Shown: positions 20,023-61,967 of the stretch, one piece after another
Numbering within the stretch: position 1 is the first letter of the stretch
Layout: the number at the start of each line of letters is the position of its first letter
Source: a virus
Taxonomy: Duplodnaviria > Heunggongvirae > Uroviricota > Caudoviricetes
Reading direction: 5' to 3' (one strand)
Length of the DNA stretch: 64,000 nucleotides
IMG/VR virus record: IMGVR_UViG_3300017655_000275
Translations under genes and position numbers: made by a program
Notes under the pieces: generated by a model
What the model was told of the DNA's origin: nothing
Database searches by the model: none
What the model saw: the letters and a program-made list of their open reading frames with translations, nothing else

Positions 20023-20111
20023 CCTTTTTTCCTTCCGGATCATCTTTTCGCAAAGGGGCAACATCACAAGAATAGGAGCGATCGTGCGAAAAAGACAACC
20101 GAAAGAGGCGA

Positions 20112-20468
20112 TCAGTCAGAGGATTTCCCCTCGACATGGAGATCCGCTTCAGACCGGACTTTTCCAGGATCCATGAACCAACGGGCGCCAAGCATCTGCT
20201 GCAGCGGATCATCACGCTCTGCCGTTGCAACGGGCAGTTCCCTGATGCGGGAAAGTGCATCCTTGAAAAATGCGGTCAGGCGATCACCTCCGGACCTGAC
20301 GCGGTTACGCGACAGGCTGGCCAGGTAGGCGAGCTGGCGCAGGTCTTGTTCATCATGGACCTCGGATGCCAAGATCTCACCTCGTGCCATCCTGCCGATC
20401 GCGATCAGCATGAAGCGCTCGCGTTCGCGGGCGCCGAGTCCTTCAAGGCTTGCAACCAGTGTCGTCAT
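20112..20468 (-). CDS. hypothetical protein downstream of, and overlapping, the DUF1814 NTase gene
   Basis: ATG (MTTLVAS) with a GAGGAA SD. Overlaps the NTase 3' end by 26 nt. The track start at 20492 is TTG. Confidence 0.35.
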   Translation of the reverse strand: MTTLVASLEGLGARERERFMLIAIGRMARGEILASEVHDEQDLRQLAYLASLSRNRVRSGGDRLTAFFKDALSRIRELPVATAERDDPLQQMLGARWFMDPGKVRSEADLHVEGKSSD

Positions 20469-21012
20469 TCCGACATTCCTCGAGAATCTCAATAGCCAGC
20501 TTTATGCTTGTGCGAATATATTCCTCGTTTCCAATGTAGTAATCAAGTGCTTCCTCAGCCCGCACCCTGACTTCCTCCGGATCGATGGGCATATGCGATG
20601 CGATCAGACGGATGTCATCCCGATCTCGCTCGATAAAACGTCCGATCTTTGATACGATCAGGTCAACCGGAGAGATTACCTTAATCGTCAGCTGCGGAAG
20701 GTCCGCAACCACTGTAGCATCGTCCTTCCAGTCCGGATGAAAGAGGCCAATGGAATCGGAAAATCCGGCATCTACAGACACCTTGACCGGGTCGCCATCC
20801 GCATCCTCCGTCATGAAGCTCTGCTGATCCATGGAAAGCAGGACACGATGAGACCATTCGATGTCCATGTCATCTGACATGCGAGCATCGGTGTAGAAGT
20901 TGACAGCTGTGCCCCCGGCCAGGTGAGCTACCACTTTTCCCCTTTTGGGATTGAAGCCCGTCGAAATGCTGGCCAGGTGCTGAAGCAGATCCTGCATCAA
21001 CCTTGTATTCAT
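20443..21012 (-). CDS. AbiEii/AbiGii-type (DUF1814) nucleotidyltransferase-fold protein
   Basis: VAHLAGGTAVNFYTDARMSDDMDIEW matches the hG[GS]...[DE]h[DE]h minimal NTase motif. This resembles the AbiEii toxin family. GGAGG SD before MNTRLMQ. Confidence 0.6.
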   Translation of the reverse strand: MNTRLMQDLLQHLASISTGFNPKRGKVVAHLAGGTAVNFYTDARMSDDMDIEWSHRVLLSMDQQSFMTEDADGDPVKVSVDAGFSDSIGLFHPDWKDDATVVADLPQLTIKVISPVDLIVSKIGRFIERDRDDIRLIASHMPIDPEEVRVRAEEALDYYIGNEEYIRTSIKLAIEILEECRNDDTGCKP

Positions 21013-21037
21013 GTTCATCCTCCATCGAAGAGTATTC

Positions 21038-21499
21038 CTATGGGGCAGGCTCTCGCGCCGCTTCCAAATCTTTCCGGGCCTCAAGAATAATCTTTTCAAA
21101 CTCGGATATCCACGTTTTCACCCTGGGCATACAGCTCTTCAGGGACTTCCTGTGCTCGCGGTTCATCCAGAAGAGATCGTCGTGCCGGTAAGGATCGGAC
21201 ATACCCTGAACATCGAGAGCATCCTCATTGAGATCCAGAATATCTCCGCCAGGCAATACCACGAACTGGTGGTCCCAGTTACCGCGGATCTTGCCGCCGA
21301 AGACCTCCCTGGCGAAGAGGGAGGTGAATTTGCAGGAACTTGACAGGTCTTGCGGTGGCGCCATGAGCCTTTCCGTGGCGCGTTCGCGCCACTTCGCAAG
21401 GACGAACTGCTTCGCGAATTCGACGTTCTCGGCTGTGGCGGCTATCGGCAAAATGCTCATGGCCGGATCATGATAATGAGTTGAGAAAAAGCAATTCAT
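21038..21499 (-). CDS. hypothetical protein upstream of the DUF1814 NTase (possible cognate partner; no obvious HTH)
   Basis: Start chosen at MNCFF (AAAGG SD). The 3' end overlaps the NTase start region. Confidence 0.35.
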   Translation of the reverse strand: MNCFFSTHYHDPAMSILPIAATAENVEFAKQFVLAKWRERATERLMAPPQDLSSSCKFTSLFAREVFGGKIRGNWDHQFVVLPGGDILDLNEDALDVQGMSDPYRHDDLFWMNREHRKSLKSCMPRVKTWISEFEKIILEARKDLEAAREPAP

Positions 21500-21545
21500 T
21501 TTTCGTTGCCTTTCCGTATTCTTCACCCAAGCCATGGAGGTTGAT

Positions 21546-21749
21546 ATGCGCCTGACCGATCAGGAAATCGAAGGACTGACCGATGAGATACTGGGACGCA
21601 TCCGGGATATCGCCCGCAACATCGAGCAGCCCGGGATTTTCATGAACCATCTCTGCCAGGCCTTGGTTCGCGAAATCATCGAACATGATCCGGGCTTCGA
21701 TATCTTCGATTTCGTCGAAGCCGCAAGGGAGCCGGTCTCATGCCCTTGA
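21546..21749 (+). CDS. hypothetical small acidic protein
   Basis: GGAGG SD 6 nt before the ATG (MRLTDQEIEGL). Confidence 0.4.
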   Translation: MRLTDQEIEGLTDEILGRIRDIARNIEQPGIFMNHLCQALVREIIEHDPGFDIFDFVEAAREPVSCP

Positions 21750-22480
21750 AACCAGCAAGAAGGCCCTTCTTCGCCAATTGCGTCGGTTGGCCAGAGGATT
21801 TGCAGATGCTCGAATTCCTGATCGAGGAGGGCGAGGAGGTTTCCCGGGACGAATTCCTGCGGCTGGTGGACAAGGAGATCCTTGCGGGGCTCGAGCGCGA
21901 TCTCGGCTACGACCGGCATCTCAGGATGAAGGACGACTATCATGTCGGCTACCGGGTGGAGCCGCGGACCGGGATTCCCTTCTTCGTGCATTCCGCGATC
22001 GAGTTCGTCTTTGCGACCAATGATGAGGTCGACGGTCTCCGCGACATTGTTCAGGACCAGATCAACAGGGAATCGGAGGTTCCAATGCAGAATACGAAAG
22101 TCAGCTATCTCTACAGGGATGGCGGAAACAACAAGATATCGCGGGATGTCGTGATCGCTGGTGCGATGACTTCATCCCAGATCGCCATGTTCTGGGAAAA
22201 ATGCGATCGGGAAATTGATGACCATCCCAGTTTCGTTCCGGGCCAGATCGGACTTCCCGACTTGCAAGCCGGTGATGAGGGCAAATACCCGTGGATCGAG
22301 GACATCGACCATCCCTGGCATATCCTGCAAGCCATAGAACATACGGATGAGGAACCAACGATACGTTTGTCGGCCGAGGATCTGGCATCCGAACTGGAAG
22401 AGATCGAGAAGGTCGAGGGATGGGATCGCGATCACCGGCCTGAGGAAGATTTCAATCCTCGGCCGGAGCTGCAAATCTGA
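21740..22480 (+). CDS. hypothetical protein
   Basis: 246 aa. AAGGGAG SD. Followed by a terminator hairpin. Confidence 0.45.
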   Translation: MPLKPARRPFFANCVGWPEDLQMLEFLIEEGEEVSRDEFLRLVDKEILAGLERDLGYDRHLRMKDDYHVGYRVEPRTGIPFFVHSAIEFVFATNDEVDGLRDIVQDQINRESEVPMQNTKVSYLYRDGGNNKISRDVVIAGAMTSSQIAMFWEKCDREIDDHPSFVPGQIGLPDLQAGDEGKYPWIEDIDHPWHILQAIEHTDEEPTIRLSAEDLASELEEIEKVEGWDRDHRPEEDFNPRPELQI

Positions 22481-22489
22481 ACCAAAATA

Positions 22490-22520
22490 CCTCCCATTCA
22501 CTGGAATGGGAGGACATTTC
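22490..22520 (+). terminator. Rho-independent terminator
   Basis: 10-bp stem (cctcccattc / gaatgggagg), loop actg, then acatttcttg. Confidence 0.5.
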
Positions 22521-22645
22521 TTGCCATGGGAATTTCGAATCCCCGTTGACCGAGAAGCAGGGTCCCGGTAAGTTTGCGAAAATTAATCAATGGCAGGGGC
22601 TTGAGCTCCAGCCCGGTGAAAGACCGGCCCGGGAGGCCGCGACCC

Positions 22646-22996
22646 ATGAACCCTGAAGCGATCGTCGATCTTATCGAGAATGCTCGCGTGGACCTGTCCA
22701 CGGAGACATTGGCTCAGCGGGGGCTTGCCCGTCTTTTCATGGACGCGGGACTCGATGCAAAAGCCGAGGTCCGGCTCAGCGACCGCGAGCGGATTGACTT
22801 CATGATCGGTCGGATCGGGCTTGAGGTGAAGATCGGACACCCGCGCCGGGCCATTTTGCGTCAACTCGAACGCTATGCGAAATCAGATGAGGTGGACGCA
22901 CTCATCCTGGTGACTTCCGTGGCCTTCCCGACGACCAACCCTCCCATCGACGGCAAACCGCTGCATGTCGCGTCCCTTTCGCGAGGATGGCTGTGA
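22646..22996 (+). CDS. small PD-(D/E)xK nuclease-like protein (VRR-NUC-like) coupled to the helicase gene
   Basis: RIDFMIGRIGLEVKIG gives a D...E-V-K motif. GGGAGG SD. Overlaps the helicase start by 10 nt. Confidence 0.4.
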   Translation: MNPEAIVDLIENARVDLSTETLAQRGLARLFMDAGLDAKAEVRLSDRERIDFMIGRIGLEVKIGHPRRAILRQLERYAKSDEVDALILVTSVAFPTTNPPIDGKPLHVASLSRGWL

Positions 22997-24741
22997 ACGG
23001 GCGGCTGGACTTCCGCGCCGGCAGCTGGACGGTCTCCGAGCTGCCGGGGCACATTTCCCTGCGCTTCAAGCAGATCTTCACCGGAATTCCGGCCGGCGCC
23101 GTCCCCCCTTTCAAACTGCGCGATACGCCGGACCGGGCGACGGATCTGGACTGGTTCATGCAGCGATATCCGCTGGAGATGAGCAAGGCGGCCCGCCGCA
23201 AGCTCGACGGATCGATCGAGGATTATCGCCAATCCCGGGAACAGCTGGCACATCTCTTGAGCGCGGCCTACCGCCCCGGCGAGATCGGGGGTATTCGCGA
23301 GCCTGAGCGGGCGGACCCGCATCAGGTGCGCGCCGCAGAGCTGATCCGCAATGCAGGGCGGCTTCTACTGCTCGACGATGTGGGGCTGGGCAAGACGCTC
23401 TCCTCCCTGGCGGCCATCGCGGATGGCTGGGGTTTGCCGGTGGCCATCGTGGTCCAGCCGCATGTCGCGGATCAGTGGCAGGCAGCGATCGAACGCTTCA
23501 CCCACCTGCGCGCGGTCCAGATCAAAACGACGAAGCCACACAAGCTCGACCCGCATGATATCTACATCTTCCGGTATACGAATATGGCCGGATGGGTGGA
23601 CATGTTCCCGGCGCTCGGGCTGAAGACGGTTATCTTCGACGAAATCCAGGAGCTGCGTCACGGCTCGGATACCGCCAAGGGCCGCGCCGCCAAGGCGCTG
23701 ATCGCGGCCTGCGACCATCATATCGGCCTGACCGCCACGCCGATCTACAATTACGGTGACGAGATCTACACTGTCGTGGAATATGTGGCGCCCGGCTGCC
23801 TTGGAACCCGAGAGGAGTTCCGCATCAACTGGTGCCGGATGCAGGGGACCCACTGGATCGTCAAGGAGCCGGAGGCGCTCGGCGCCTTCCTTCAGGCCGA
23901 GGGCATCGCGTTGCGGCGCACCGAGGACGATCCAGAAGTGGCCCAGTCCGTCCCGCCGCTCAAACGTGCCCTGTTCCAGGTGGCCTGGAACGACGGCGAC
24001 GTGGAAACGGACCGGGAGCTGCAGCGCCGCCTGGCCCAGCGGGTTCTGACCGGCAGCTTCACCCAGCGCGGCCAGGCCGCGCGCGAACTCGACATCCTGC
24101 TGCGCCAGGAGACCGGCATCGCCAAGGCCCGCGCCGTTGCGGCCTATGTGCGCAACCTGGTCGAGAACGGCGAACAGGTGATCCTGGGCGGCTGGCACCG
24201 AGAGGTCTACCGGATCTGGCAGGAAGCCCTGTCGGACCTGCGCGTCGTGATGTTCACCGGATCGGAATCCCAGAAACAGAAGCGGGATGCCAAAGAGGCC
24301 ATCATGAGGGGCGAGGCGGATGTGATCATCATCTCTCTGAGGTCCGGCGCGGGTCTCGACGGGCTGCAGTTCCGCATCCGTCATGTGGTCTTCGGCGAGT
24401 TGGACTGGTCCCCCGAGGTCCACAAGCAACTCGTTGGCCGCGCGCGCCGTCGCGGACAGTCTCGCGAGGTGACTGCCCATTACCTCTGGACCGATGGCGG
24501 CTCCGACCCTGTCATCATGGGCATGCTCGGGCTGAAAGCCTCCCAGGCGGACGGCATCCTGAACCCCTATGTCCGGGAAGACCGGAACGCGCCGGAGCCC
24601 GCCGATGAGAACAGGATGCGCGAAATGGCGCGGGCGATCCTTGATCGTCCCGATCCCGATCCAGCCCAGAATATGGCTGCAATCGCAGCTCCGCCTCCGC
24701 CCTCCGATATCCCGGATTTCAATCAAGTCGTCTGGGCTTGA
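22987..24741 (+). CDS. SNF2-family (SF2) helicase, phage-type
   Basis: LLLDDVGLGKTLSSLA (motif I), VIFDEIQELRH (motif II), GLTATP (motif III), and a C-terminal helicase domain QLVGRARRRGQ (motif VI). Confidence 0.75.
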   Translation: MAVNGRLDFRAGSWTVSELPGHISLRFKQIFTGIPAGAVPPFKLRDTPDRATDLDWFMQRYPLEMSKAARRKLDGSIEDYRQSREQLAHLLSAAYRPGEIGGIREPERADPHQVRAAELIRNAGRLLLLDDVGLGKTLSSLAAIADGWGLPVAIVVQPHVADQWQAAIERFTHLRAVQIKTTKPHKLDPHDIYIFRYTNMAGWVDMFPALGLKTVIFDEIQELRHGSDTAKGRAAKALIAACDHHIGLTATPIYNYGDEIYTVVEYVAPGCLGTREEFRINWCRMQGTHWIVKEPEALGAFLQAEGIALRRTEDDPEVAQSVPPLKRALFQVAWNDGDVETDRELQRRLAQRVLTGSFTQRGQAARELDILLRQETGIAKARAVAAYVRNLVENGEQVILGGWHREVYRIWQEALSDLRVVMFTGSESQKQKRDAKEAIMRGEADVIIISLRSGAGLDGLQFRIRHVVFGELDWSPEVHKQLVGRARRRGQSREVTAHYLWTDGGSDPVIMGMLGLKASQADGILNPYVREDRNAPEPADENRMREMARAILDRPDPDPAQNMAAIAAPPPPSDIPDFNQVVWA

Positions 24742-24813
24742 GCCTGGAAGGTGTTGGTAAAAGCCTTCTCTGCCGATCCTCCTGTCTTGATTGGAAGGCG
24801 TCGCCTTGCGATA

Positions 24814-24822
24814 ATGCGAAAA
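24814..24822 (+). promoter_or_regulatory. ATGCGAAAA motif instance (27 nt upstream of the ATG at 24841)
   Basis: One member of the recurrent 8-9-mer family; see findings. Confidence 0.3.
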
Positions 24823-24840
24823 ACACAAGGCGCGAGAACG

Positions 24841-25440
24841 ATGAACTTTTACACCGCAGATCCACATCTCATGCACGAGGCCATTATCCGCATGTGCCGG
24901 AGGCCATTTTCCACTGTCGGCGAGATGAATGAAGCCATCATCGGAAATGCCGCCACTGTCATGACAGGAAAGGATGATCTCTGGATCCTCGGGGATGTCT
25001 CTCTTGCAAAGGGGGCGGACCGGGATCTTGTCAGGGCCATGATCGGTCGGATTCCAGGTCGCAAACATCTGGTGCGAGGCAACCACGACAAAAGCTGGAT
25101 CGAGGATCTGGGCTGGCATTCGATCCACGACTTCATCGAGGTCAAGGATGGCGGGCGGCGCGTTTCTCTCTTCCATTACCCGATGGTGACCTGGCCCGGC
25201 ATTCGCCACGGAGCCCTGCAACTTTTCGGCCATGTGCATGACAACTGGCTGGGCCAGCGCAATTCGGTGAATGTCGGCGTGGACTTCTGGGGCTTCAAGC
25301 CAGTTTCCGTCGATGAGGCCGCGTTGCGCGCGGCGGAACTGCCTTGTAGTCAAGCGTTGCTGGACTGCGAGCCAGGTTACGGAGAGCCCGCCTTTGGCAG
25401 AGGCACGCCCCGCAACCGGCAACTTTGCGAGGAGGTTTGA
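24841..25440 (+). CDS. calcineurin-like metallophosphoesterase
   Basis: LWILGDVS, GNHD and GHVH motifs. ATGCGAAAA motif 27 nt upstream of the ATG. Confidence 0.6.
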   Translation: MNFYTADPHLMHEAIIRMCRRPFSTVGEMNEAIIGNAATVMTGKDDLWILGDVSLAKGADRDLVRAMIGRIPGRKHLVRGNHDKSWIEDLGWHSIHDFIEVKDGGRRVSLFHYPMVTWPGIRHGALQLFGHVHDNWLGQRNSVNVGVDFWGFKPVSVDEAALRAAELPCSQALLDCEPGYGEPAFGRGTPRNRQLCEEV

Positions 25441-25458
25441 TGGTTCTGGATGCAAGCG

Positions 25459-26253
25459 CTACCGCCTGCAGGATCGCCGAACAGAATTTCGGAGATTGCT
25501 GCCCTCGCTACCGGCCAGGTTCTTCAGGTTGATCGCGGCATTGATGTCGCGGTCATGATCGGCGCCGCATGTGGCGCAGGTCCAGGAACGGACCGAGAGT
25601 GGAAGCTGATCCACCTTGCTGTGACAGCCGGAACAGGTCTTGCTCGAGGGAAAGAACCTGTCGGCGACCATCAGTCGCCCGCCGGCCCGCTCGAGCTTGT
25701 AGCCGAGCTGACGGCGGAATTCGTAAAAGCCCATATCGGCGATCGCCCGGGCAAGACGGCCATTGCCCATCATGCCCCGGACATTGAGATCCTCGATCGC
25801 CACGCTGCCAAAGCGGCGCGACAGCATCGTCGTCAGCTTGTGCAGGCTGTCCTGGCGGATATTGCGGATCCGGGCATGGAGCTTCGCGATCCGCGCCCGG
25901 GACCGGGCCCGGTTCTTGCCGCCCTTCATCTTGCGGGCGTGCGATCTCTGCAGTTTCGCAAGCTTCCTGAGATGCGAGCGCAGCGCCTTCGGACCCGCGA
26001 TCTTCTCGCCAGTGCTCAGGGTCGCCAGATCGGTGATCCCGAGATCGACGCCGACCGCCGGCCGGTGATTGTGCAGGGGCTGCTCATGGTCGATCTCGGC
26101 CATGACCGCGGCAAACCAGCGACCGCCCTCCTTCGAAATCACCACCGATTTCAGATCGGGGTTGAGATCCGGGCTGAAGCGATAGGCCTCGTGCATCCTG
26201 ACCCAACCGATCCGCGGCAGCTTCAGGCGCCGTCTACTACGTCTTCCATATAT
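25459..26253 (-). pseudogene. tnpB: IS605-family tnpB remnant (N-terminally truncated by about 110 aa; RuvC-I/II/III and zinc finger retained)
   Basis: KLPRIGWV, GVDLGI (RuvC-I) and CSGCHSKVD...CATCGADHDRDINAAINL (zinc finger / RuvC-III) are present. The reading frame is closed by a stop at 26254-26256. No tnpA nearby. Confidence 0.7.
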
Positions 26254-26979: not shown

Positions 26980-26983
26980 GCGC

Positions 26984-29545: not shown

Positions 29546-29771
29546 GGCAAGCCTGATCGCGGACGGATTCAGACGCCGGCTGGCATTCTGCCGGGAAACA
29601 CGGAATGAGCATATGCGTTCTCAGGCGTGCTGTCGGATATAATTATGTGCGAAAATGTATAAACTGGCAATCAAGGGGACCGAACTTGTCTCAAAGAACA
29701 GATCTGCCACGCTGGCTTTGAATGATAGCCTGGGTCCAGTTTCAAGATTGTTCAGTTACCCAGTCGAGTTC

Positions 29772-29802
29772 ACTCCATCCTACGGGATGGAGTTTTCGTT
29801 TC
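29772..29802 (+). terminator. Rho-independent terminator (may end a small transcript that begins near the GTGCGAAAA motif at 29647)
   Basis: 9-bp stem (actccatcc / ggatggagt), loop tacg, then TTTTCGTTTC. Confidence 0.5.
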
Positions 29803-29901
29803 GGCCATCGCCAATCGCCTTTGGTATCTGCGACACCTGTATTTTTCTCACGGTGTGAATAGATTTCCTGTGCTCCAGAACCTCAGGACAAGGGACGCAC
29901 C

Positions 29902-31763: not shown

Positions 31764-31810
31764 CCTTTTCAGGCCCTCCGGTCACGTAGATGCGAATAAA
31801 GGAAGACCAA

Positions 31811-36619: not shown

Positions 36620-36628
36620 ATGCGAAAA
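36620..36628 (+). promoter_or_regulatory. ATGCGAAAA motif instance (25 nt upstream of the ATG at 36645)
   Basis: One member of the recurrent motif family. Confidence 0.3.
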
Positions 36629-41487: not shown

Positions 41488-42033
41488 ATGATACTCCAGA
41501 TCGGGCCTGCCTTTCGCAGGGGCATAAGGGCGGCACATGATGCATATGCGAAAATTCCAATTGGCGTAGGCGTTGTTCGAATGAACGACGACGAATATCC
41601 CGAACTGGTCGAGATGATCGATGACATGCATCGTTTCCCGGAAGACAGGATATCTCCATCCTATGGCGTCGTGCCGTATCCGGATGGCGAAATGTTCACC
41701 CTCGCCATCTTGGAGCGGGGACAAGTCATCTCGCAGATCAGCATGACGGTTTGTGTTTTTCGATCCGCTGTCGAGGTGACTGTCGAGAGCTGCTATACGG
41801 ATTGCCGGCACCGGGGCAGGGGACTGGCCACATGCCTGGCCGGTATCGTGGGAGAGATTGTTCTGAGCGGATACATGTCCGCCGGTCAAGTCGACGAAAC
41901 GTTCCCGGAAAAGGTCCGGCCCGTCATCTGTGGGGATTTCACGGAAGTAAGCAGGAAAGTCGGTGAAAAAATAAGAATGTCATTGGAATCCGGACTGCAT
42001 CACATCGCCGGCCAGCCCGACATGGTGATGTAA
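41488..42033 (+). CDS. GNAT-like acetyltransferase-fold protein (tandem paralogue)
   Basis: CYTDCRHRGRGLATCLAGIV. Lies 3 nt after the upstream stop. Confidence 0.35.
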   Translation: MILQIGPAFRRGIRAAHDAYAKIPIGVGVVRMNDDEYPELVEMIDDMHRFPEDRISPSYGVVPYPDGEMFTLAILERGQVISQISMTVCVFRSAVEVTVESCYTDCRHRGRGLATCLAGIVGEIVLSGYMSAGQVDETFPEKVRPVICGDFTEVSRKVGEKIRMSLESGLHHIAGQPDMVM

Positions 42034-44790: not shown

Positions 44791-44979
44791 AAGATCGTTC
44801 GCCCCCAGATAGGCTTTCGAATGATGCAGCATGCCCAGATGGTCGACGAAACGGCGAAGCCGGCCGCCCATTTCCGTCCCCGGCATCATCGTCTCGACGA
44901 CCTCGCTCAAGCTCTTCTCGGCTGCCCGTTTGGGAATGCCGCCGCGTTCCTTCAGCCTTTTGGTTGCGTGCCGGGTCAC
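44791..44979 (-). pseudogene. 5' part of the DUF4258 toxin-like gene interrupted by IS3
   Basis: GFVTRHATKRLKERGGIPKRAAEKSLSEV resembles the DUF4258 N-terminus. A GTG start in a GTGA overlap with the upstream 99-aa gene. The frame ends at a TGA created by the IS right end. Confidence 0.55.
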
Positions 44980-45275
44980 GAATCCGCCTCCGTCTCGAAT
45001 TTCTCGATCCTGATCCGCCAACTGCCAGATGGCACGCCGCGAACGGTCAGGTTTTTCACCTCGATCTCGATATCCTCCGCGCCCATTTCATTGGCCTTGC
45101 TGATCAGATATCCGGCAACCGCGGTCTCACCGCTGGCCTTGCCGTCATAGGCAGTCATGTTCGCGAATTGCCGGTTCAGGGCGTCTCCATAGAAGATTCC
45201 CATCGGGAAGAAGGTCTCGACAAGCCAATTGATCGGTTTTCGCAGCAGGCGCTGCGCCAGGTTATGCTGTGCCAT
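44976..45275 (-). CDS. hypothetical protein, upstream partner of the DUF4258 gene (possible antitoxin)
   Basis: GGGAGG SD 7 nt upstream. 99 aa. Confidence 0.45.
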   Translation of the reverse strand: MAQHNLAQRLLRKPINWLVETFFPMGIFYGDALNRQFANMTAYDGKASGETAVAGYLISKANEMGAEDIEIEVKNLTVRGVPSGSWRIRIEKFETEADS

Positions 45276-54785: not shown

Positions 54786-55916
54786 ATGAGGGAAACAGAA
54801 AAGGCTGCCTGGAGCAGATTTACCCAGGATATTCCTGCTGACCTTCACGATGACATCCAGAAGTCGATGTTCGAGCTCGCCCATTATGGCGGATCGCATC
54901 CCTATGTGACCATCACCGACGTCGTCCATCATGACGTGCTGAACCTCAGCGCAGAAGGGATCGTGACAATCGGCGATCGCGAATTCTCCTTTACGATCAG
55001 ATCCGGAAACAATAACGGCTCCGAGCTTCTTGACTGGGATACTGGTAAAGGTATCGATCGAACACCCCCGGTCGTCGAAGTGATCGCACCTGTCTATTCG
55101 CGTATTGCTGAGATCCGGAGTGCGGCAGATGCTGCCGCACTCCTCAGCGAGTGGGACGATGCGCTCGACCCCGCGACGGAGATCGGGAAGAACCTGTCGG
55201 GACTGGCTGGCAAACGTGCCTACGACCGGCATTTCGCTCCAGGCACGGGAACCTCGCGCCATTGGGACCGGAAGGCGGGCGAAAGAGGCTATGAGATCGT
55301 CGAGGAGGATGTTGCCATAGACAGGCGCAAAACCCTCCTGGGGGCTGTTCTCACGGTGCGCCCAACCTACGCAAAGTTGCTGAAGGGGAAGGGTGCCTGC
55401 GCTACTCTCCGGGCCTGGACAAGCCTGCAAACGACACCTGGAGATCTTTCCGAGCGCCTGAACGGCCATCTCGCCGCGGTTATCGACCGACTGTCGCAAG
55501 GCAGGGGAACATGTGTCCTCTATGAGGAGCAGAAGGTCGTCTGGAAAGACGGCTATGAGATCTGCGACGGAATCCAGGCACGAGCCACGAAAGAGCACCT
55601 CGTGATGCGGAGTCTGCGACTGGAACCCATCCCCGGTTTCGACAGGAAAGACCTTCCCGAGAGCATGATTTCCTCCTTCATCAGAGGATTTCCCCATTTC
55701 AGAGAAGATTTCCCGGAACCAATCAGGGTTGATCCACTTCGGGAAGGGGCAAGACTTGTGCTTGAACTGGCGTCCGTTGTCTCCAGGCGGGAAGGGCTCG
55801 ACATACCGCAATCCTTCCGCGATAAGGCCGCGGAAATCGGTTTTACGATCGGATGGATCGACGACATGGCAGCATTGACGCCTGAACTGCAGGATGCGGA
55901 TCTGCCATGCCCGTGA
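54786..55916 (+). CDS. hypothetical protein
   Basis: Start MRETEKA with a GAGG SD. 376 aa. Confidence 0.45.
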   Translation: MRETEKAAWSRFTQDIPADLHDDIQKSMFELAHYGGSHPYVTITDVVHHDVLNLSAEGIVTIGDREFSFTIRSGNNNGSELLDWDTGKGIDRTPPVVEVIAPVYSRIAEIRSAADAAALLSEWDDALDPATEIGKNLSGLAGKRAYDRHFAPGTGTSRHWDRKAGERGYEIVEEDVAIDRRKTLLGAVLTVRPTYAKLLKGKGACATLRAWTSLQTTPGDLSERLNGHLAAVIDRLSQGRGTCVLYEEQKVVWKDGYEICDGIQARATKEHLVMRSLRLEPIPGFDRKDLPESMISSFIRGFPHFREDFPEPIRVDPLREGARLVLELASVVSRREGLDIPQSFRDKAAEIGFTIGWIDDMAALTPELQDADLPCP

Positions 55917-56311
55917 AACACGGGGAAGGCCAAGAGTGGAAACAGGGTTTCGAGCTCGTTTGTGCAAAAGCCGCCGAGAAGCGGGTCACTGTCTCCGGCC
56001 GATGCCTGCTCTCGGGATCCGGCCGCAGGACGTTGATCCTTCAAACCGTCTTCGTGCCGCCAGAGGACAGGGGTTGGGGCATCGGAAGCGGGATCATCCG
56101 GGGTATCCTTGCCTGGGCCGACCAGGCTGGAACGACAGTCAGGCTGACGCCGGACGCGACATTCGCGGGGATGAGCCTGCCGCGCCTGGAGCGTTTCTGG
56201 AGAAGCTTCGGCTTCGTGCCGAACCAGGGTGCCAACGGGGATCCGGTCTTCGCACAGAGCCTGGTTCGGGCGCCTTTGGCAGAAGAAGATCTGGCCGCCC
56301 TTCCGAAGTAA
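55907..56311 (+). CDS. GNAT-family acetyltransferase
   Basis: EDRGWGIGSGIIRGILAWA (motif A). 10-nt overlap with the upstream gene. Confidence 0.45.
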   Translation: MPVKHGEGQEWKQGFELVCAKAAEKRVTVSGRCLLSGSGRRTLILQTVFVPPEDRGWGIGSGIIRGILAWADQAGTTVRLTPDATFAGMSLPRLERFWRSFGFVPNQGANGDPVFAQSLVRAPLAEEDLAALPK

Positions 56312-56375
56312 AGGCGGTGGAAGAGGCTGCTCTCGCTACGGTCGAGAGCCGGGCGGCTGGGACGGGATCGCAGTC

Positions 56376-56834
56376 CTAAAGACCCAATGCCGCCCTGGCC
56401 AATGCGCGCGGATCGTTATGGCCGCCGGCGATCGCCTCCAGGGCGCGTCTCAATTGATCATCGTGCTGAATCGCTGCCTTTCTCGGAGTTCGGGTTCGGG
56501 GAAGGTAATTCGCCGGCGGTAGGACCGTTCCAGCGACATACCTCGCGATCGAACCATCGCCATCGGGCACCCATTGCAGCGAAACCGGAAACAGCGGTGG
56601 GGTGATCCGTTCCCAATAGTCCGCCGCGCAGGCCGGTTCAAAACCGCTAGGGCCACCACAGGCTGGAGATTTCCGACCGATACGCGAGCCGTCGCGGTCA
56701 TAGAGGACCAGATCCAGGAGAACCGCCTCATCGGAACCCGGATCCCGGTAGACGTCTTTCACCTTCCCGACATTTCTGTGATCGCCACGGGATGCGACCC
56801 AGTCGCCAGGCTTGAAAGGAAACGGCTTCTGCAT
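56376..56834 (-). CDS. hypothetical protein
   Basis: Start MQKPFPF with an AGGAG SD. The track start is TTG. Confidence 0.4.
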   Translation of the reverse strand: MQKPFPFKPGDWVASRGDHRNVGKVKDVYRDPGSDEAVLLDLVLYDRDGSRIGRKSPACGGPSGFEPACAADYWERITPPLFPVSLQWVPDGDGSIARYVAGTVLPPANYLPRTRTPRKAAIQHDDQLRRALEAIAGGHNDPRALARAALGL

Positions 56835-56863
56835 GGCATGATCTCCTGGGTCCGATGAGAATT

Positions 56864-57274
56864 TCAATGAGCGTCTGGAAGAGAGTTGAACTCGTTCTTC
56901 ACCTTTTCGACTTCTTTCTTCCGCGTTTTCTCGTTTTCAGAATTCGTCGAAGATCCGGAAGAGATGATCACCGCCGGGCGATTTTCCTTCTCCATGCGTT
57001 TAGCGTTCTGTTCCACGATCGCAGAGCTGACCGCCGGCGCGGAGATATCGTTCCTGGGCATCCAAACCGATGAGCGGCCAGCGGTCAGCAGCGCCAGGAC
57101 CAGAACGGTCCCGAACAGGAGAAGGCGCCCGACAGGCAGGGCTGCGGCTTGAGATGCGGATTTCCTGGCGTTGTGGTTCCTGAGAGTGCCCGCGATCCCA
57201 GAAACGGCAAACACCGCAATGGACAGACAGGCAATCAGAATGGCCCAGGAAAGAAGGATATACGAAAGTGTCAT
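56864..57274 (-). CDS. membrane protein (two TM helices)
   Basis: Start MTLSYILLSWAILIACL with an AAAGGAAAAG SD. Confidence 0.45.
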   Translation of the reverse strand: MTLSYILLSWAILIACLSIAVFAVSGIAGTLRNHNARKSASQAAALPVGRLLLFGTVLVLALLTAGRSSVWMPRNDISAPAVSSAIVEQNAKRMEKENRPAVIISSGSSTNSENEKTRKKEVEKVKNEFNSLPDAH

Positions 57275-57327
57275 GGCTTTTCCTTTATTTTGATTGAGCA
57301 AAGGGGCGGATAACCGCCCCGATCCCA

Positions 57328-58269
57328 TCATTGGCGCGCGGCTTCCCGCGCTTTGCGCTGATCCTCGAAGGCCTTGCCAAGGCCGCCGATCATCACCGAA
57401 GGGTTGTTCAGGGCCTCGGTGGGCAGGAAGACGATCTGGTTGTCGGATTTCGCCAGCTCTTCGAGGATCCGAAGACCGCGCTGAGCGACGAAGGCATCGG
57501 AGAAGCCCTCCTTCAGCTTCTGTTCGACCAGGACCTGGGTTTCAGCCTCTTTCAGGTCGACAGCCTGCTGAAGTTTGGCAACTTCCAGCGCGGCTTCTGC
57601 TTCGCGCAACGACACTTCCTTGTTGGCTTCCGCCTGCAGGATGGCGATCTCTCGCTCCTTGCGCTTCAGCTCAGCTTCGGTCACGACCGAAGGGGGCTGT
57701 GCATCGTTCAGGCCGAAGTTCAGCACCTTGACCGGCCGGCCTTCAAGGGCCTCGACCACCTCCGCGAAAAGCTCGGCACTGATTGAATCACGGTTCTCCA
57801 TGACCGTCGCGATATCATATTTCGCAAGCACGGAGCGTGCTTTTTCACGCACGATCTGCTGGGCGTAGGTCTCGTAGACCGTGGAAGCGCGGATCGCCTT
57901 CACCCTTTCCGTCACCGGCTGGGCCGAAACCCGGCTGAAGATCATCGACAGGTCCTTCTCGGTATCCGAGGTGGCAAAGGTGCCACGGACATCGACCGTC
58001 AGGTTCAGGCGATCCTTCGGCATATAGAGCTCGAAATTCTCGGAGATGCCGTAATCGCTGATCTCCGCGATGATCAGCGAGTCGCACGTCAGGCACATGT
58101 TCGACAGCCGGATCTTCGATGGCGGCAGGACGCCCTCTTTCAGGCCGGCGCTGGTGCTGATCATTCCGCGATGCGCGGTCGGCACCTCGACCGTTTCGCC
58201 GATACAGCCGGCGAGGGAGAGCGCCATGCCCAATGGGACGAGGACGCGCAGAAAACGGCGAAAATTCAT
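57328..58269 (-). CDS. SPFH/Band-7 domain lipoprotein
   Basis: Lipobox LSLAGC. SPFH-like core followed by a coiled-coil region. AAAGGA SD. Confidence 0.6.
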   Translation of the reverse strand: MNFRRFLRVLVPLGMALSLAGCIGETVEVPTAHRGMISTSAGLKEGVLPPSKIRLSNMCLTCDSLIIAEISDYGISENFELYMPKDRLNLTVDVRGTFATSDTEKDLSMIFSRVSAQPVTERVKAIRASTVYETYAQQIVREKARSVLAKYDIATVMENRDSISAELFAEVVEALEGRPVKVLNFGLNDAQPPSVVTEAELKRKEREIAILQAEANKEVSLREAEAALEVAKLQQAVDLKEAETQVLVEQKLKEGFSDAFVAQRGLRILEELAKSDNQIVFLPTEALNNPSVMIGGLGKAFEDQRKAREAARQ

Positions 58270-58304
58270 GGTTCATCCTTTCAAACTCGAGGCTTCTGCC
58301 CTTC

Positions 58305-58353
58305 ATGCGAAAACTATCATCGTGAGGTGTTTGCAACAATAACATTTTCGCAT
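58305..58353. promoter_or_regulatory. inverted pair of the ATGCGAAAA / TTTTCGCAT motif in the divergent intergenic region
   Basis: ATGCGAAAA at 58305-58313 and TTTTCGCAT at 58345-58353, between divergent genes (57328-58269 on the minus strand, 58449-59468 on the plus strand). Confidence 0.35.
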
Positions 58354-58448
58354 GACATGGAATCCCGCTCAGGAAAGGAATTACCGTTGATTTTTCCAGA
58401 GAACCATATCATGTGGTTGCACCTTTCATAGTGCCAGGGATGTCGGGA

Positions 58449-59468
58449 ATGCAGTTTGTAATCAGTTCGGACCTCGAAGCCGGAAGCAGTCCACAGATCA
58501 AGCGGATCTTGTCTGGGAAGGACGTACGGATCGCTTCGGCATTCCTTGGCAGCGGAGCGGAAGACGCTGTCCAGGCAGGGTCCAGGCTGATTTGCGATAT
58601 CGGCATGGGCGGCACAAACCCCCACGCATTGAAGGCGCTTTCCGAAAAGCTCGGCGAAAACCTGAGATGGCTGCCCGACTTCCATGCGAAGGTATATCTC
58701 TCGGACGAGGGCTGCGTTGTTGGCTCGGCCAATCTTTCAAGCCGCGGAGTTGGCTTTCTTTCGCCCGCCAGGCTGATCGAAGCTTCAGTGCTCATGGACG
58801 GGAATGAGGAGGCTGCCCGGACCGCGGCCGATTGGTTTGAAACCAACTGGAAGGAGGCTTCCATCGTCGGCCCAAGGGAAATCGCCTGGGCCCTTGCCAC
58901 CTGGAACTCCGACAAGCGCGGTGCCCCGGTCGGGAAGCGGAAATACGGATCCTTCCTCGAGGCGCTCGAGGACCAAACGGGTGTCGCGCGCGAATGGAAG
59001 TATATCCTTACCAGGGAGCAGTTAAGCCCTGGCTTCGCAAAGGCAGCCGCCGAAAAGGAGAGCGAGATCATCCGCGCGGCAGGATGGCAGCCTGAAGGCA
59101 AGATCGACGTCTATGCCAATCTGAAGGGGGCCGACGACATGGGCGGTTACTATATCGGCCTCCATCGCGGGGGCGGCGGCCGGCTGCACCTGCTCGCGCT
59201 GCGCTTCATCGGCAATATGGACCTGGAGGATATCGATGATGAGGACGACTCCGGCACCGCATCCTATTTCGCCATTCTTCCCTGGTCCGTGACCGGAATG
59301 CCGGCGTTGGGCGATGAGGATAAAAAAGCGAAGGGCGCCCTGAGCGCGGCTATCCGGGATGCCCGGAAGAAGAGGTTCGGTCGTGCGATCAGTGCGAGCA
59401 AATTTGCCGGCGTCCTCCGTCAAGGCCTGACTCTCGCCGAGGACCGACCCTCCTGGGGAAGCGCATGA
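58449..59468 (+). CDS. PLD-family (single HKD motif) nuclease-like protein with a C-terminal domain of unknown function
   Basis: HAKVYLSDEGCVVGSANLS (HxK...D...GSxN). The start is uncertain (track GTG at 58413, ATGs at 58440 and 58449). Confidence 0.5.
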   Translation: MQFVISSDLEAGSSPQIKRILSGKDVRIASAFLGSGAEDAVQAGSRLICDIGMGGTNPHALKALSEKLGENLRWLPDFHAKVYLSDEGCVVGSANLSSRGVGFLSPARLIEASVLMDGNEEAARTAADWFETNWKEASIVGPREIAWALATWNSDKRGAPVGKRKYGSFLEALEDQTGVAREWKYILTREQLSPGFAKAAAEKESEIIRAAGWQPEGKIDVYANLKGADDMGGYYIGLHRGGGGRLHLLALRFIGNMDLEDIDDEDDSGTASYFAILPWSVTGMPALGDEDKKAKGALSAAIRDARKKRFGRAISASKFAGVLRQGLTLAEDRPSWGSA

Positions 59469-59543
59469 AAAAAAGTGGGTCGAAGATATGCCCCCCTCCA
59501 AGCTACGGCATTGGTGGGGGGCATGGGTCTTGATGAAGCACGA

Positions 59544-60020
59544 TCACATGGCGTAAACGAGCCCATCATCATCAAGATCGAGATTGACCGGTCCCCAAGC
59601 CTCGCAGGCGTTGGTGAGGCGCTCGGCCGCTTCTTCGGCTGCGCCGGTGAAACCGCGATCCCAATATCCGACACCTGCGCCGTCGCGGGTGAACAGGAAA
59701 TCGATCCCGGCGTTCTCCATCGTATATCGATCACCAGGCCGCGAGCCTGGCGCGATCAGGATCGCAAGATCTGCGGCATTCTCCTCGCAGAACCTGGCGC
59801 AATCCGTTTTCATTTTCTCAAGGGTTTCCAGTCCAAGATCCGTGAAACCGTGTTCCTTCAGATCCGGCTCACCGTCGCACTCACCCAGCGGCGCCGTGAA
59901 GAAGACAGCGGAAATATATCCTCGCAAAAAGGGAGGAAGGCTCCTGAATTGCTCGGTTGCACTGCCCCCAAGGTAGAACTGGTCTCCCGGAGGACGACGG
60001 GAAGGGTCATCGAAATGCAT
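59544..60020 (-). CDS. hypothetical protein
   Basis: Start moved to MHFDDP to avoid a 110-nt out-of-frame overlap with the SD-supported small gene upstream. Confidence 0.3.
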   Translation of the reverse strand: MHFDDPSRRPPGDQFYLGGSATEQFRSLPPFLRGYISAVFFTAPLGECDGEPDLKEHGFTDLGLETLEKMKTDCARFCEENAADLAILIAPGSRPGDRYTMENAGIDFLFTRDGAGVGYWDRGFTGAAEEAAERLTNACEAWGPVNLDLDDDGLVYAM

Positions 60021-60036
60021 ATCGTTATTCCGTTCC

Positions 60037-60249
60037 TCAGAGGCCTGGGCCGCCATTGCCTGCAACGCCAACCACCTCGGGATCCCTGGCGACCCATTCG
60101 ATGGATTCATCATCATCAGGAAGATAGCTGGAGTTGTCGAAGTCATAGCTCCGCATCATCTCCAATGCTTCTTCTTCGGTATCGGCCTCGACCAGGAACG
60201 TCCTGTCGTAGGTCTCGACGACACGCGCCTTGATTTCGAATTTTGCCAT
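60037..60249 (-). CDS. hypothetical small acidic protein
   Basis: Strong AAGGAG SD 8 nt upstream. Confidence 0.45.
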   Translation of the reverse strand: MAKFEIKARVVETYDRTFLVEADTEEEALEMMRSYDFDNSSYLPDDDESIEWVARDPEVVGVAGNGGPGL

Positions 60250-60259
60250 GGATCACTCC

Positions 60260-60910
60260 TTAAAGCGACAACGGGTCGTTTTCCGGCTCTGATGCGGCCG
60301 CATGAATGGCCTCGATCAGCGCGATTTCGCATTTCAGCGTGTGCTTCAGGTTTTCGTAGACGAGTTCCTGGCTCGGGAAGTTAGCCTTCGCCTTCTTCAG
60401 CATGGGGAAGAAAAAATCATTGGTCTCGTCGATGTATTCCCGCTGTTTCTCCAGACTGAACACGCCGACCATGGACGAATGGTTGTGATGGCGATCGGCA
60501 CCTTTCACCACCGAGGCGATCGGGTCGGCTGCGATTGCCTCGAACACAAGCTCCGGGCGCCGCTTGCGGCCGCGGACGACTTTGGTCAGCGCGTCGACAG
60601 CACTGGCTGTCATTGCCCCGAAACGGTCGCGGATATCGCGATCCGATACGTCAAAATCTTCCCGGACATCATGCAGGAACACCGCAGCGAAGGTTTCCTG
60701 CGGATGCTGAAGGGATGGGCTCAATGTCCTCAGATATTGCGCGATGGAAATCTGATGATCGAATTCAGGAGTGATGCCATCCTTCCGCGTCCCGGTATGA
60801 AACCCGCGCGCATAGTGCATCGCGTCCAGGGCCATGTAGTGACCGCGCCCTGTAAGCCAGCCGATGAGCTGGGTCTTTCTCTTCTCGATCTCGAGCATCT
60901 TTTCATCCAT
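60260..60910 (-). CDS. HD-domain phosphohydrolase, RelA/SpoT-like (p)ppGpp hydrolase fold (small alarmone hydrolase-like)
   Basis: HYARGFHTGTRKDG...HQISIAQYL...AAVFLHDVREDF resembles the SpoT HD region. ATGCGAAAAGGAAAGCTT ATG places the start at MDEKML. Confidence 0.5.
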   Translation of the reverse strand: MDEKMLEIEKRKTQLIGWLTGRGHYMALDAMHYARGFHTGTRKDGITPEFDHQISIAQYLRTLSPSLQHPQETFAAVFLHDVREDFDVSDRDIRDRFGAMTASAVDALTKVVRGRKRRPELVFEAIAADPIASVVKGADRHHNHSSMVGVFSLEKQREYIDETNDFFFPMLKKAKANFPSQELVYENLKHTLKCEIALIEAIHAAASEPENDPLSL

Positions 60911-60932
60911 AAGCTTTCCTTTTCGCATGAAT

Positions 60933-61862
60933 TTACATGGCCGGGACCGGAGCCCTCAGTCCTTCGATAACGGCTTCTGCCGAAGGAAGCCCGGACAATT
61001 CCGGATCCTCAATGTCGATCTGTGCAAGTCCCAACTCGGGAGCAAGGGAATCCAGGACCCTGTAAGGCTCGAAATTCGTGACCTGTCCGGGATATCCCAT
61101 CATGTTCGAGGTGAATGCGATCGGCCCATGCAAGCCGTTCACGATCCCCCGCCTAGCCTGATGGGTATGCCCCGAAATCCAGGCATCCACCTTCAAGCCA
61201 AGAACGTCTTCACGCAGGTCACTGACATAGGCAGGCGCGTAAGGTCCTTTTCCGGCACTCTCGGCCAGAACCTCCGGAACCGGGAGGTGATGGGTCATGA
61301 CAACGGTCGGACCGTCGAAATCCTTGCGCAACGCCTCGACCAACCAGGACCGGTCATGAAGATGCATGGCGCGTGTGTCTTCAGGCTGAAGATAGCGGTC
61401 GCGGACCTCATCCGACACGATGATCTTTCGATAGTCGTTGATGACCACAGATGCCCCGAACATCTGGTCCTGGTGATTGCCGACGATGTCGAAATCGGTC
61501 CACAGAGTGCATGCAAGCAAGCGCGTGCCCGCAATCTCCATGCTTTCCCGATCCAGGACACGAATATCATGGCCCTGTTCGCGGGCGCGCTTGACCGCAT
61601 CGGACATGCGTCCCGGCAATGATGTGAACTCATTGTGGTAGAATTCGTGGTTCCCTCTGATAGAGATCACGGGGACCTTCCAGGCCTCATGGATCTCCAC
61701 CAGCGCATCGACATGGTCGATACCGCAGGCGAGGTCGCCTGCGATCAGGATCCCATCGACCGAGCCTGCAGGGCAATCGAATGTCGGCATGGGGAAGTCG
61801 ACCGGCTGCGAGGCATTGCCGAATTCACGATGCAGGTCCGACCATTGAAGAAAACGCGCCAT
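60933..61862 (-). CDS. calcineurin-like metallophosphoesterase (Icc/phosphodiesterase-like)
   Basis: GDLACG, GNHEFY and GHTHQ motifs. Only the C-terminal 310 aa of the 654-aa track ORF are taken. The rest is antisense to tyrS. Confidence 0.6.
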   Translation of the reverse strand: MARFLQWSDLHREFGNASQPVDFPMPTFDCPAGSVDGILIAGDLACGIDHVDALVEIHEAWKVPVISIRGNHEFYHNEFTSLPGRMSDAVKRAREQGHDIRVLDRESMEIAGTRLLACTLWTDFDIVGNHQDQMFGASVVINDYRKIIVSDEVRDRYLQPEDTRAMHLHDRSWLVEALRKDFDGPTVVMTHHLPVPEVLAESAGKGPYAPAYVSDLREDVLGLKVDAWISGHTHQARRGIVNGLHGPIAFTSNMMGYPGQVTNFEPYRVLDSLAPELGLAQIDIEDPELSGLPSAEAVIEGLRAPVPAM

Positions 61863-61967
61863 GCCGTTGATCCCGGTTGTTCTCTCCCAGTTTAGAATGC
61901 CCTTGCGAAAAAGACACGCCAGAAATAGAATGATAAGCACTTTCTCATAAGGCGAACGGGCAGGGTA

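Follow-up and report, generated by a model that had tools for sequence, protein, structure and literature searches.

The 64,000-nt stretch of IMG/VR virus record IMGVR_UViG_3300017655_000275 analysed here (the window), which is the last 64 kb of the 195-kb contig ENA ERZ27256370:k141_25898, carries copy after copy of the 8-mer TGCGAAAA close to its genes. This raises the question of whether a large set of accessory genes is read through one common DNA signal, and of what kind such a signal would be. As judged from its distribution and conservation, TGCGAAAA acts in cis as a DNA signal peculiar to one family of accessory replicons. For its function we tentatively favour, with a confidence that stops a little short of even, a core-promoter element of the -35-independent class, which would be either an extended -10-like box or the start-site region. 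Altogether 82 kb of the contig were read, comprising the window and 18 kb to its left (the stretches L099 and L095 lie left of the window on the same contig), and the public gene calls from matching contigs were placed on this sequence as the basis of the intergenic counts.

The window holds 21 copies of TGCGAAAA on both strands, against a mean of 2.54 and a maximum of 7 in dinucleotide-preserving shuffles. Under an order-3 Markov model it is the top enriched 8-mer of the window (6.5-fold), and the 9-mers ATGCGAAAA and TGCGAAAAT are enriched about 11-12-fold. The original prediction had claimed at least 13 copies, a figure that was real and understated; its 13 positions were right within 1 nt, the count having begun at the preceding A/G, and the copies absent from its list lie at 262(-), 14243, 20045(-), 22575, 37963(-), 40686(-), 41547 and 45237(-). 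The 82 kb contain 28 copies, about 20 of them entirely within non-coding DNA, which makes up 10% of this length: 17 of the 25 copies in the window and the first 8.3 kb to the left (72 kb; 10% non-coding) were fully non-coding, and the next 10 kb added three copies, all intergenic. Within 8,273 nt of intergenic DNA, 21 copies were counted where 0.60 were expected (35-fold; Poisson P = 3e-25), bearing out the claim that the copies are mostly intergenic, non-random and upstream of genes. The remaining top intergenic 8-mers were all overlapping derivatives of TGCGAAAA. Both strands were used throughout the region, without strand skew.

The signal had also been described as island-wide, between 20 and 62 kb. 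As copies were found ahead of tyrS (the tyrosyl-tRNA synthetase gene), near an FtsH-like gene and within a cluster for nicotinamide adenine dinucleotide (NAD) salvage, the word is not confined to that interval; it spans at least 82 kb and recurs in related replicons. It is common to many unrelated accessory genes, as had been proposed, and is not a strict signal of all of them. Among the 69 genes preceded by a gap of 20 nt or more, an exact sense copy was found in 14 and a one-mismatch copy in another 11, and TGCGAAAA marks a subset of the transcription units rather than every one. Short gaps ahead of about a quarter of the genes of the element hold the word.

Around the 8-mer, weak information was detected solely at -3 to -1 (t, c, A) and at +8/+9 (t, g), giving the fuller form tcA-TG[C/t/a]GAA[A/t]A-tg. 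Since the information is limited to -3 to +9 and the flanks are unrelated, the copies are not pieces of a longer repeat; a repeat element such as a repetitive extragenic palindrome, a miniature inverted-repeat transposable element or the end of an insertion sequence (IS) was rejected on the same ground, the flanks beyond the core not being conserved. A coding start (Met-Arg-Lys) or shared N-terminus was also rejected, because the frames opening at NTGCGAAAA, which includes the preceding NTG, mostly run for 6-37 codons. A literature search for the word returned primer noise only and no description of the motif.

Related loci were compared for conservation of the word. The Paracoccus sp. ME4 locus (L101, CP151277.1; 64% G+C) carries five exact copies in 21.9 kb against 0.41 expected, and its gaps also hold TGTGAAAAT 27 nt before a start codon, ATGCGAAAAT after TATAA, and ATGCGAATA. 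In a metagenomic syntenic relative (L115; SNF2 protein 89% identical, 66% G+C), TGCGAATA stands 32-37 nt before three start codons, and one reversed exact copy of TGCGAAAA is present as well. In the gap after the SNF2 gene, the motif pair is conserved between ME4 and L115: AATAGTTTTTCGCATTG and ATGCGAATAATCCAA are unchanged, whereas about half of the 24 nt between them differ. TGTGCGAAT is likewise invariant ahead of a 396-aa gene, and all three blocks lie 32-37 nt before start codons. The corresponding gap of the window is otherwise unalignable to the relatives, yet it has TGCGATAA-TGCGAAAA at the same place. These blocks form a phylogenetic footprint, one drawn from two to three sequences only. 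All other assemblies of the region itself are 100% identical, and therefore no population-level footprint is possible.

The word behaves differently in host-type DNA. In 80 Rhodobacteraceae tyrS loci (1.39 Mb), 76 copies were found with an intergenic bias of at most 1.4-fold by a crude gene call, and a general Rhodobacteraceae promoter word was rejected for want of a strong intergenic bias there. No copy was found in Paracoccus phage Pyei1 (SNF2 module 61% identical), in a Roseibium contig with the FtsH-like gene, or in positions 45001-95000 (L104) of the 709-kb megaplasmid pBSY19_1 of Bosea sp. RAC05. The gene content of pBSY19_1 is similar (LPD1, PTH2-like, RNA ligase, TnpB, a 116-aa plus SNF2 pair, pilin), and another intergenic word, CAAGGATTG/CAATCCTTG, recurs on it, standing in both orientations in about a third of its upstream regions. 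By analogy, replicon-specific intergenic words may be common in such elements.

A distance of about 25-38 nt to many start codons had been reported; it is not uniform, and about half of the copies conform to it. Counted from the first base of the motif to the start codon, the 16 exact gene-directed intergenic copies measure 17, 23, 24, 24, 26, 28, 30, 34, 37, 64, 71, 83, 94, 140, 143 and 254 nt, that is, nine at 17-37 nt and seven at 64-254 nt. Of the individual spacings in the original prediction, those to the ATGs at 24841 (26 nt), 31371 (24 nt), 36645 (24 nt), 40952 (28 nt), 20022 (30 nt) and 60910 (17 nt) are approximately right; ahead of 52622, the variant TGAGAAAA sits at 28 nt and the exact copy at 140 nt. 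The variants at 8931, 11809, 31791 and 52594 lie 33, 19, 20 and 28 nt from a start codon, and the related ATGAGAAAA copies mentioned earlier were indeed found, at 8931 and 52594. The cluster at 17-37 nt (nine exact copies and four variants) holds even in gaps of 99-191 nt, so that a positional preference exists; it is modest, with about 13 observed against about 8 expected from uniform placement within gaps, by our own estimate.

The substitutions tolerated by the motif speak, unexpectedly, for the extended -10 idea of the original prediction. With the motif numbered T0 G1 N2 and then G3-A7, intergenic one-mismatch variants fall at position 2 (nine: TGAGAAAA five, TGTGAAAA three, TGGGAAAA one) and at position 0 (six to seven), whereas G1 is altered in just one or two of them and G3, A4 and A5 are almost invariant; in the relatives, position 6 is frequently T. 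The arrangement of a TG, a free base and a hexamer is that of an extended -10 promoter, and a weak T, a strong G, a free N and a fixed hexamer with an invariant A at -11 (A4) read as its signature at the sequence level.

No companion box was detected. No -35 score exceeded that of shifted controls at any register, no upstream k-mer was conserved, and the only recurrent ones were occasional reversed partial copies of the motif. Neither TTG nor TTGAC was enriched at any upstream offset, as the alphaproteobacterial RpoD -35 TTGaCgS would require, and no column was conserved from -45 to -4 or from +10 to +52 around the motif. The architectures of sigma-54, sigma-28, extracytoplasmic function and heat-shock promoters were rejected, as no companion box was present at any register. 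The motif as a -35 box was rejected too, since this fits only the copies at 61904 and 37963 and there is no enrichment of a downstream -10. Canonical sigma-70 consensus promoters number 7 at 20-40 kb against 7.9 expected in shuffles; being no commoner than chance, they leave the genes there in need of another signal.

Two places for a -10 hexamer were considered. The internal one (positions 3-8, GAAAAT) fits about 40% of the sites, those followed by T. A canonical -10-like hexamer (TATAAT, GATAAT, TAGAAT, TATTAT, TAAGAT and others) ends on the motif T in 11 of 45 sites, where we estimate that about 4 would be expected by chance with the fixed T allowed for. Upstream hexamers and T at position 8 show no anticorrelation (Fisher P = 1.0), and the two readings are not mutually exclusive per site. 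In the Caulobacter RpoD consensus cited in PMC8144410, the -10 is GCtANAWC and the -35, TTGaCgS, lies 10-14 nt upstream of it; GCGAAAAN, like GCGAAAA, agrees with this -10 at 6 of 8 positions, the main difference being t to G at -12.

Two copies give evidence that the word starts transcripts. At 22575, just past a two-way terminator hairpin, the word heads the gene pair for a 116-aa protein and an SNF2 helicase. A perfect TATAAT stands 5 nt upstream of the copy at 29648; past this copy come about 120 nt free of called genes and then a terminator (29771-29803; a 10-bp GC-rich hairpin plus T-tract). As no gene lies between this copy and the terminator, it would act as a transcription start signal and not as a translation signal. 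The 158-nt stretch 29648-29805 (+) folds better than its shuffles (z = -2.4) and is a candidate small RNA, with a predicted length of about 145-155 nt, headed by the motif; Rfam gave no family at E<=1 around 29560-29900 and none relevant at the gathering threshold in the window. Of the eight copies in coding DNA, four (262, 40686, 41547, 45237) read in the sense direction no more than 125 nt from the annotated start, and each is followed by an in-frame ATG at 15-49 nt. The public starts of the TnpB gene, the LPD5/LPD1 gene, 41488-42033 and 44976-45275 may thus be mis-called, too far upstream.

From these features we infer a role in transcription initiation. TGCGAAAA would be a DNA-level core-promoter signal of a large accessory replicon of a Rhodobacteraceae, Paracoccus-like bacterium, and the promoter class, without need for a -35 box, would serve about a quarter to a third of the transcription units. 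These would include some antisense or divergent transcripts as well as one or more probable small RNAs. RNA polymerase would begin in the motif or a few bases past it, leaving very short leaders, and the reader would be either the host alphaproteobacterial RpoD, taking the word as an extended -10-like element, or a replicon-encoded sigma-like or adaptor protein. A bolder form, which we hold to be doubtful, is that a family of giant extrachromosomal or accessory Rhodobacteraceae replicons, with this element, the 535-kb ME4 replicon and relatives among its members, runs a private code in which a sharp, -35-less TG-N-GAA(A/T)A is read by a sigma-like factor or RNA-polymerase adaptor that the replicon would encode outside the 82 kb.

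Several observations weigh against a core promoter. The likeness to an extended -10 element in the original prediction holds for the tolerance pattern and fails for the hexamer, which is GAAAAN and not TATAAT: -12 is an invariant G, and T occurs at -7 (position 8) in 8 of 18 aligned intergenic copies, or in 18 of 46 sites once variants and relatives are counted. There are about 2.5 exact copies for each real variant, a sharper conservation than promoter elements usually show. In 20 of 46 sites, a hexamer of the canonical -10 type has its end 0-7 nt ahead of the motif, which places the predicted start inside the motif, in a variable register. Where orientation can be judged, in co-directional gaps, it is weakly biased, with nine copies pointing toward the gene and five away (-7398, 20085, 47559, L099 19361 and L099 21432); plus-strand open reading frames that would make 20085 and 47559 sense were rejected, as their hexamer coding score is worse than that of the public minus-strand calls. 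In the six closest sites (17-24 nt) an AAGGA or GGAG directly follows the motif, at +8 to +15, and the ribosome-binding sequence would be excluded from the transcript because an extended -10 start would fall 6-8 nt past the hexamer. Five of the six stand in short gaps between co-directional genes, so that their ribosome-binding sequences could serve read-through transcripts, and the conflict is, as far as the sequence tells, clean at 36621 only. Finally, the 82 kb yielded no candidate trans-acting factor, sigma-like or other, and no regulator emerged among 20 small orphan proteins at relaxed thresholds.

Some of these points suit another explanation better, namely that the motif is the operator of a replicon-encoded global regulator, likeliest a repressor like those of the IncP kor system, whose asymmetric site would lie over the -10/start region of ordinary promoters and silence or coordinate the accessory genes. 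The upstream hexamers with a start predicted inside the motif are what such an overlap would produce, exact conservation of the 8-mer suits a sequence-specific protein, the word is not in excess in host-type chromosomal loci, and it occurs near gene starts in both orientations, the reversed copies lying 27-70 nt before the nearest start codon. Pairs also recur, with the copies 36-40 nt apart (20045/20085, 58306/58345, L101 16977/17013 and L115 6029/6065). Three are back-to-back; the fourth, the inverted pair 58306/58345 already noted in the original prediction, is face-to-face and extends to a 10-bp perfect inverted repeat, CATGCGAAAA/TTTTCGCATG. The idea of a dimeric operator that had been attached to it draws on a few such pairs; a partner copy is present at only about five loci (spacings 21-46 nt), most copies are single, and the word is asymmetric, without internal dyad symmetry. 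Many sites have no recognisable promoter for an operator to overlap, the free position 2 and weak position 0 are better explained by a TGn-plus-hexamer, and the DNA-binding proteins in the 82 kb are only an NrtR-like regulator and transposase helix-turn-helix domains. On balance we regard an operator as rather unlikely, though as a serious contender.

A role in RNA is harder to sustain. The motif would then be a leader element upstream of the ribosome-binding site, bound by an element-encoded RNA-binding protein or nuclease, or paired with a small RNA seed (UUUUCGCA), that controls the translation or stability of many mRNAs. Close copies do end 0-5 nt before AAGGA/GGAG in about half of the cases, base pairing would account for the dominance of exact copies, and reversed copies could give the complementary strand, 58306/58345 forming a 10-bp stem in either transcript. 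However, roughly one informative copy in three runs antisense to the local genes, at least three (29648, L099 19361, 14243) are followed by no gene within 250 nt, the start codon can be as far as 143-254 nt away, and neither the free position 2 nor the change from A to T at position 6 in the relatives has a visible compensation. There is also no Rfam family match, and we consider this explanation improbable. Least probable is a genome word without a part in transcription, such as a DNA-uptake or packaging sequence, a Chi-like word or the target of the MmeI-like or another methyltransferase. A sharp, over-represented and asymmetric 8-mer is indeed typical of uptake sequences, Chi and Type IIL sites, and an MmeI-like enzyme and a further S-adenosylmethionine (SAM)-methyltransferase are encoded in the window. 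Uptake and Chi words pervade coding DNA, however, with uptake sequences forming terminator pairs and Chi being oriented by replication, whereas about 70% of the TGCGAAAA copies lie in the 10% of DNA that is non-coding, mainly ahead of genes, on both strands and without skew; restriction sites, for their part, are usually avoided, not enriched. The copies and main variants are listed in Table 1.

Table 1. Exact copies of TGCGAAAA and selected variants in the window, with their strand and surroundings
Feature	Position	Strand	Surroundings
Exact TGCGAAAA	262..269	-	Inside annotated 5' end of IS605-family TnpB gene (start 278); 15 nt before alternative ATG 254
Variant TGAGAAAA	8931..8938	+	33 nt before ATG 8964
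Variant TGTGAAAA	11809..11816	+	19 nt before ATG 11828 (NUDIX/NrtR-like gene)
Exact TGCGAAAA	14243..14250	+	Antisense in last codons of MmeI-like restriction-modification gene; no downstream gene
Exact TGCGAAAA	20045..20052	-	30 nt before ATG 20022; heads minus-strand gene row ending in MmeI-like gene
Exact TGCGAAAA	20085..20092	+	Back-to-back with 20045 copy, 40 nt centre to centre; faces into minus-strand gene 20112-20468
Exact TGCGAAAA	22575..22582	+	71 nt before ATG 22646 (116-aa gene and SNF2 helicase); just past two-way terminator hairpin 22490-22513
Tandem TGCGATAA-TGCGAAAA	24807..24822	+	Exact copy 26 nt before ATG 24841; TTGATT-17-GATAAT ends on motif T
Exact TGCGAAAA	29648..29655	+	TATAAT 5 nt upstream; strong terminator hairpin at +123, no called gene between
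Exact TGCGAAAA	31347..31354	+	24 nt before ATG 31371; GGAG 3 nt past motif
Variant TGCGAATA	31791..31798	+	20 nt before ATG 31811 (PAPS-reductase-like gene); variant dominant in relatives
Exact TGCGAAAA	36621..36628	+	Divergent gap, 24 nt before ATG 36645; TTGCTC-17-TAGAAT ends on motif T
Exact TGCGAAAA	37963..37970	-	45-nt gap, 34 nt before ATG 37936
Exact TGCGAAAA	40686..40693	-	Sense, 123 nt into annotated LPD5/LPD1 gene; in-frame ATG 40644 49 nt on
Exact TGCGAAAA	40924..40931	+	28 nt before ATG 40952; TATTAT ends on motif T
Exact TGCGAAAA	41547..41554	+	Sense, 59 nt into annotated gene 41488-42033; in-frame ATG 41581 34 nt on
Exact TGCGAAAA	42043..42050	+	46-nt gap, 37 nt before ATG 42080
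Exact TGCGAAAA	45237..45244	-	Sense, near 5' end of annotated gene 44976-45275; 41 nt before ATG 45203
Exact TGCGAAAA	47559..47566	+	Reversed, in 63-nt gap between two minus-strand genes; 50 nt before start 47516
Exact TGCGAAAA	52482..52489	+	140 nt before ATG 52622 (Band_7 gene); reversed: 59 nt before divergent start 52430
Variant TGAGAAAA	52594..52601	+	28 nt before ATG 52622
Inverted pair CATGCGAAAA-N27-TTTTCGCATG	58306..58352		Face-to-face; divergent gap between Band_7 gene (start 58269, -) and gene starting 58449
Exact TGCGAAAA	60920..60927	-	22-nt gap, 17 nt before ATG 60910 (HD_4 gene); abuts AAGGAAAG
Exact TGCGAAAA	61904..61911	+	64 nt before tyrS ATG 61968; also readable as -35 of TTGCGA-17-TAGAAT

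The element that carries the word is most likely a large accessory replicon, a megaplasmid, chromid or other type, represented by contigs of 195-230 kb, and its host, going by protein similarity, is most likely an uncultured, Paracoccus-like member of the Rhodobacteraceae. The family is indicated by the module of a 116-aa protein and SNF2 helicase, which is 85% and 93% identical, respectively, to that of Paracoccus sp. ME4. Phage origin was rejected: PHROGs matched only a polyvalent-protein fragment, no phage structural genes were seen in the 82 kb, IMG/VR gave no relatives, and phage Pyei1 shares only the SNF2 module and is free of the motif. PLSDB contained no close relatives, and a scan of JGI metagenomes with the SNF2 protein returned distant relatives only. 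For the tyrosyl-tRNA synthetase gene (61968-63209), identical copies are confined to metagenome contigs, which reach up to 230 kb; next in similarity come Paracoccus enzymes at 63% identity. The public gene calls correspond at 100% identity to the window up to position 63,882. From 63883 the window departs from the otherwise identical assembly ERZ27256357:k141_42445, and all contigs end nearby, pointing to a repeat or an assembly breakpoint.

All of the 82 kb has an accessory character, and about 65% of its genes fall into no Pfam family. The recognisable genes encode an MmeI-like restriction enzyme, the SNF2 helicase, polyvalent-protein domains (LPD1, LPD5, ART), Macro, NUDIX/NrtR, Tpt1 and PTH2 proteins, a protein like 3'-phosphoadenosine-5'-phosphosulfate (PAPS) reductase, AbiEii, IS605 and IS3 elements, a LuxI-type synthase, two Band_7 proteins, second copies of the tryptophanyl- and tyrosyl-tRNA synthetases (TrpRS and TyrRS), the NAD-salvage cluster, the FtsH-like protease and, in the window, the SAM-methyltransferase. 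The protease lacks the FtsH N-terminal domain, and the proteins closest to it are "AAA family ATPases" (44-50% identity) from Roseibium, Roseivivax, Paracoccus and Epibacterium. Genes related to NAD and ADP-ribose are dense at 4460-12520 of the window and in its left flank (L099 12072-16583; L095 318-5463), and include a nicotinate phosphoribosyltransferase (NAPRTase), an isochorismatase-type nicotinamidase, two NUDIX proteins (one NrtR-like), Macro, ART-PolyVal and Tpt1, alongside PTH2, the second TrpRS and TyrRS, and the FtsH-like protease. By analogy, this set resembles an anti-defence or NAD-reconstitution kit.

The module of the 116-aa nuclease-like protein and SNF2 helicase is found at 22646-24741 of the window, at 14881-16958 of L101, at 3927-6010 of L115 and at 5032-7070 of the phage record MK291445.1. 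The ME4 copy (CP151277.1) is the close match cited above, and identity to the temperate Paracoccus phage vB_PyeM_Pyei1 is 61%; this indicates recent exchange of the module among Rhodobacteraceae mobile elements. A tRNA-Arg(CCT) gene lies inside the accessory region at 4262-4336 (+). An island bounded by it was rejected, as no direct repeat of its 3' end of at least 12 nt exists in the window and the motif occurs on both sides. An Rfam match to SNORD56, a eukaryotic snoRNA, at 14154-14221 (+) (36.9 bits against a gathering score of 36) is surely false; it falls in a 283-nt gene-free gap beside the end of the MmeI-like gene, which may hide a structured RNA. The EcoRI word GAATTC is over-represented 2.2-fold in the window, and CGAATTC/GAATTCG 3.5-fold (order-3 Markov model).

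If TGCGAAAA is a private promoter or operator word, it provides a handle on a large block of unknown genes: it would reveal which of them are co-regulated and where their transcripts start, and would allow the controlling factor to be fished for. Should the private sigma-like code be true, hundreds of orphan genes would be insulated from host regulation. The motif also corrects the annotation, with four start codons suspect and one unannotated small RNA indicated, and the cultured carrier Paracoccus sp. ME4 makes its function directly testable.

Among known systems, the extended -10 sigma-70 promoters, which include some phage sets, have TGn before the hexamer, a dispensable -35 and a start 6-8 nt downstream. 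TGCGAAAA is like them in its TG one base before the hexamer, the free base, the A at -11, the lack of a -35 and the closeness to genes; it differs in the GAAAAN hexamer, where -12 is G instead of T, -10 is A and -7 is T in about 40% of copies only, and in being a far sharper word. The -10 of alphaproteobacterial RpoD in Caulobacter, whose consensus is cited in PMC8144410, shares with it the GC before the hexamer, A at -11, A at -9 and A/T at -8. Unlike those promoters, TGCGAAAA shows no -35 TTGaCgS and has G at -12, and host-type Rhodobacteraceae loci are without an excess of the word.

The late promoters of T4, TATAAATA, are read by gp55/gp33. They resemble TGCGAAAA as one sharp 8-bp word, without a -35, that serves many genes of one replicon and is absent from the host; the sequence is another one, and no gp55- or gp33-like protein or phage structural gene was seen in the 82 kb. 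The KorA/KorB operators of IncP-1 plasmids are 12-13-bp palindromes bound by dimers and coordinate backbone and accessory genes. They resemble TGCGAAAA as one short word that stands at many promoters of a plasmid, some sites being paired or distant from the promoter, whereas TGCGAAAA is asymmetric, 8-11 bp long and mostly single. The leader elements ops and boxA recruit RfaH and NusB-NusE, and are few per genome and always sense. They are likewise short, oriented, exactly conserved words in operon leaders on mobile elements, but TGCGAAAA has another sequence, many copies and both orientations, and no NusG-like gene was seen in the 82 kb. From its sequence features, TGCGAAAA cannot be assigned to any of these systems: it has the TGn and does without a -35, as extended -10 promoters do, and it departs from these in T-12/T-7, from the alphaproteobacterial RpoD consensus in having no -35 and from classical operators in having no dyad symmetry. 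The kind of system is familiar, a mobile element with its own regulatory word, and involves no new principle; what is new is the sequence.

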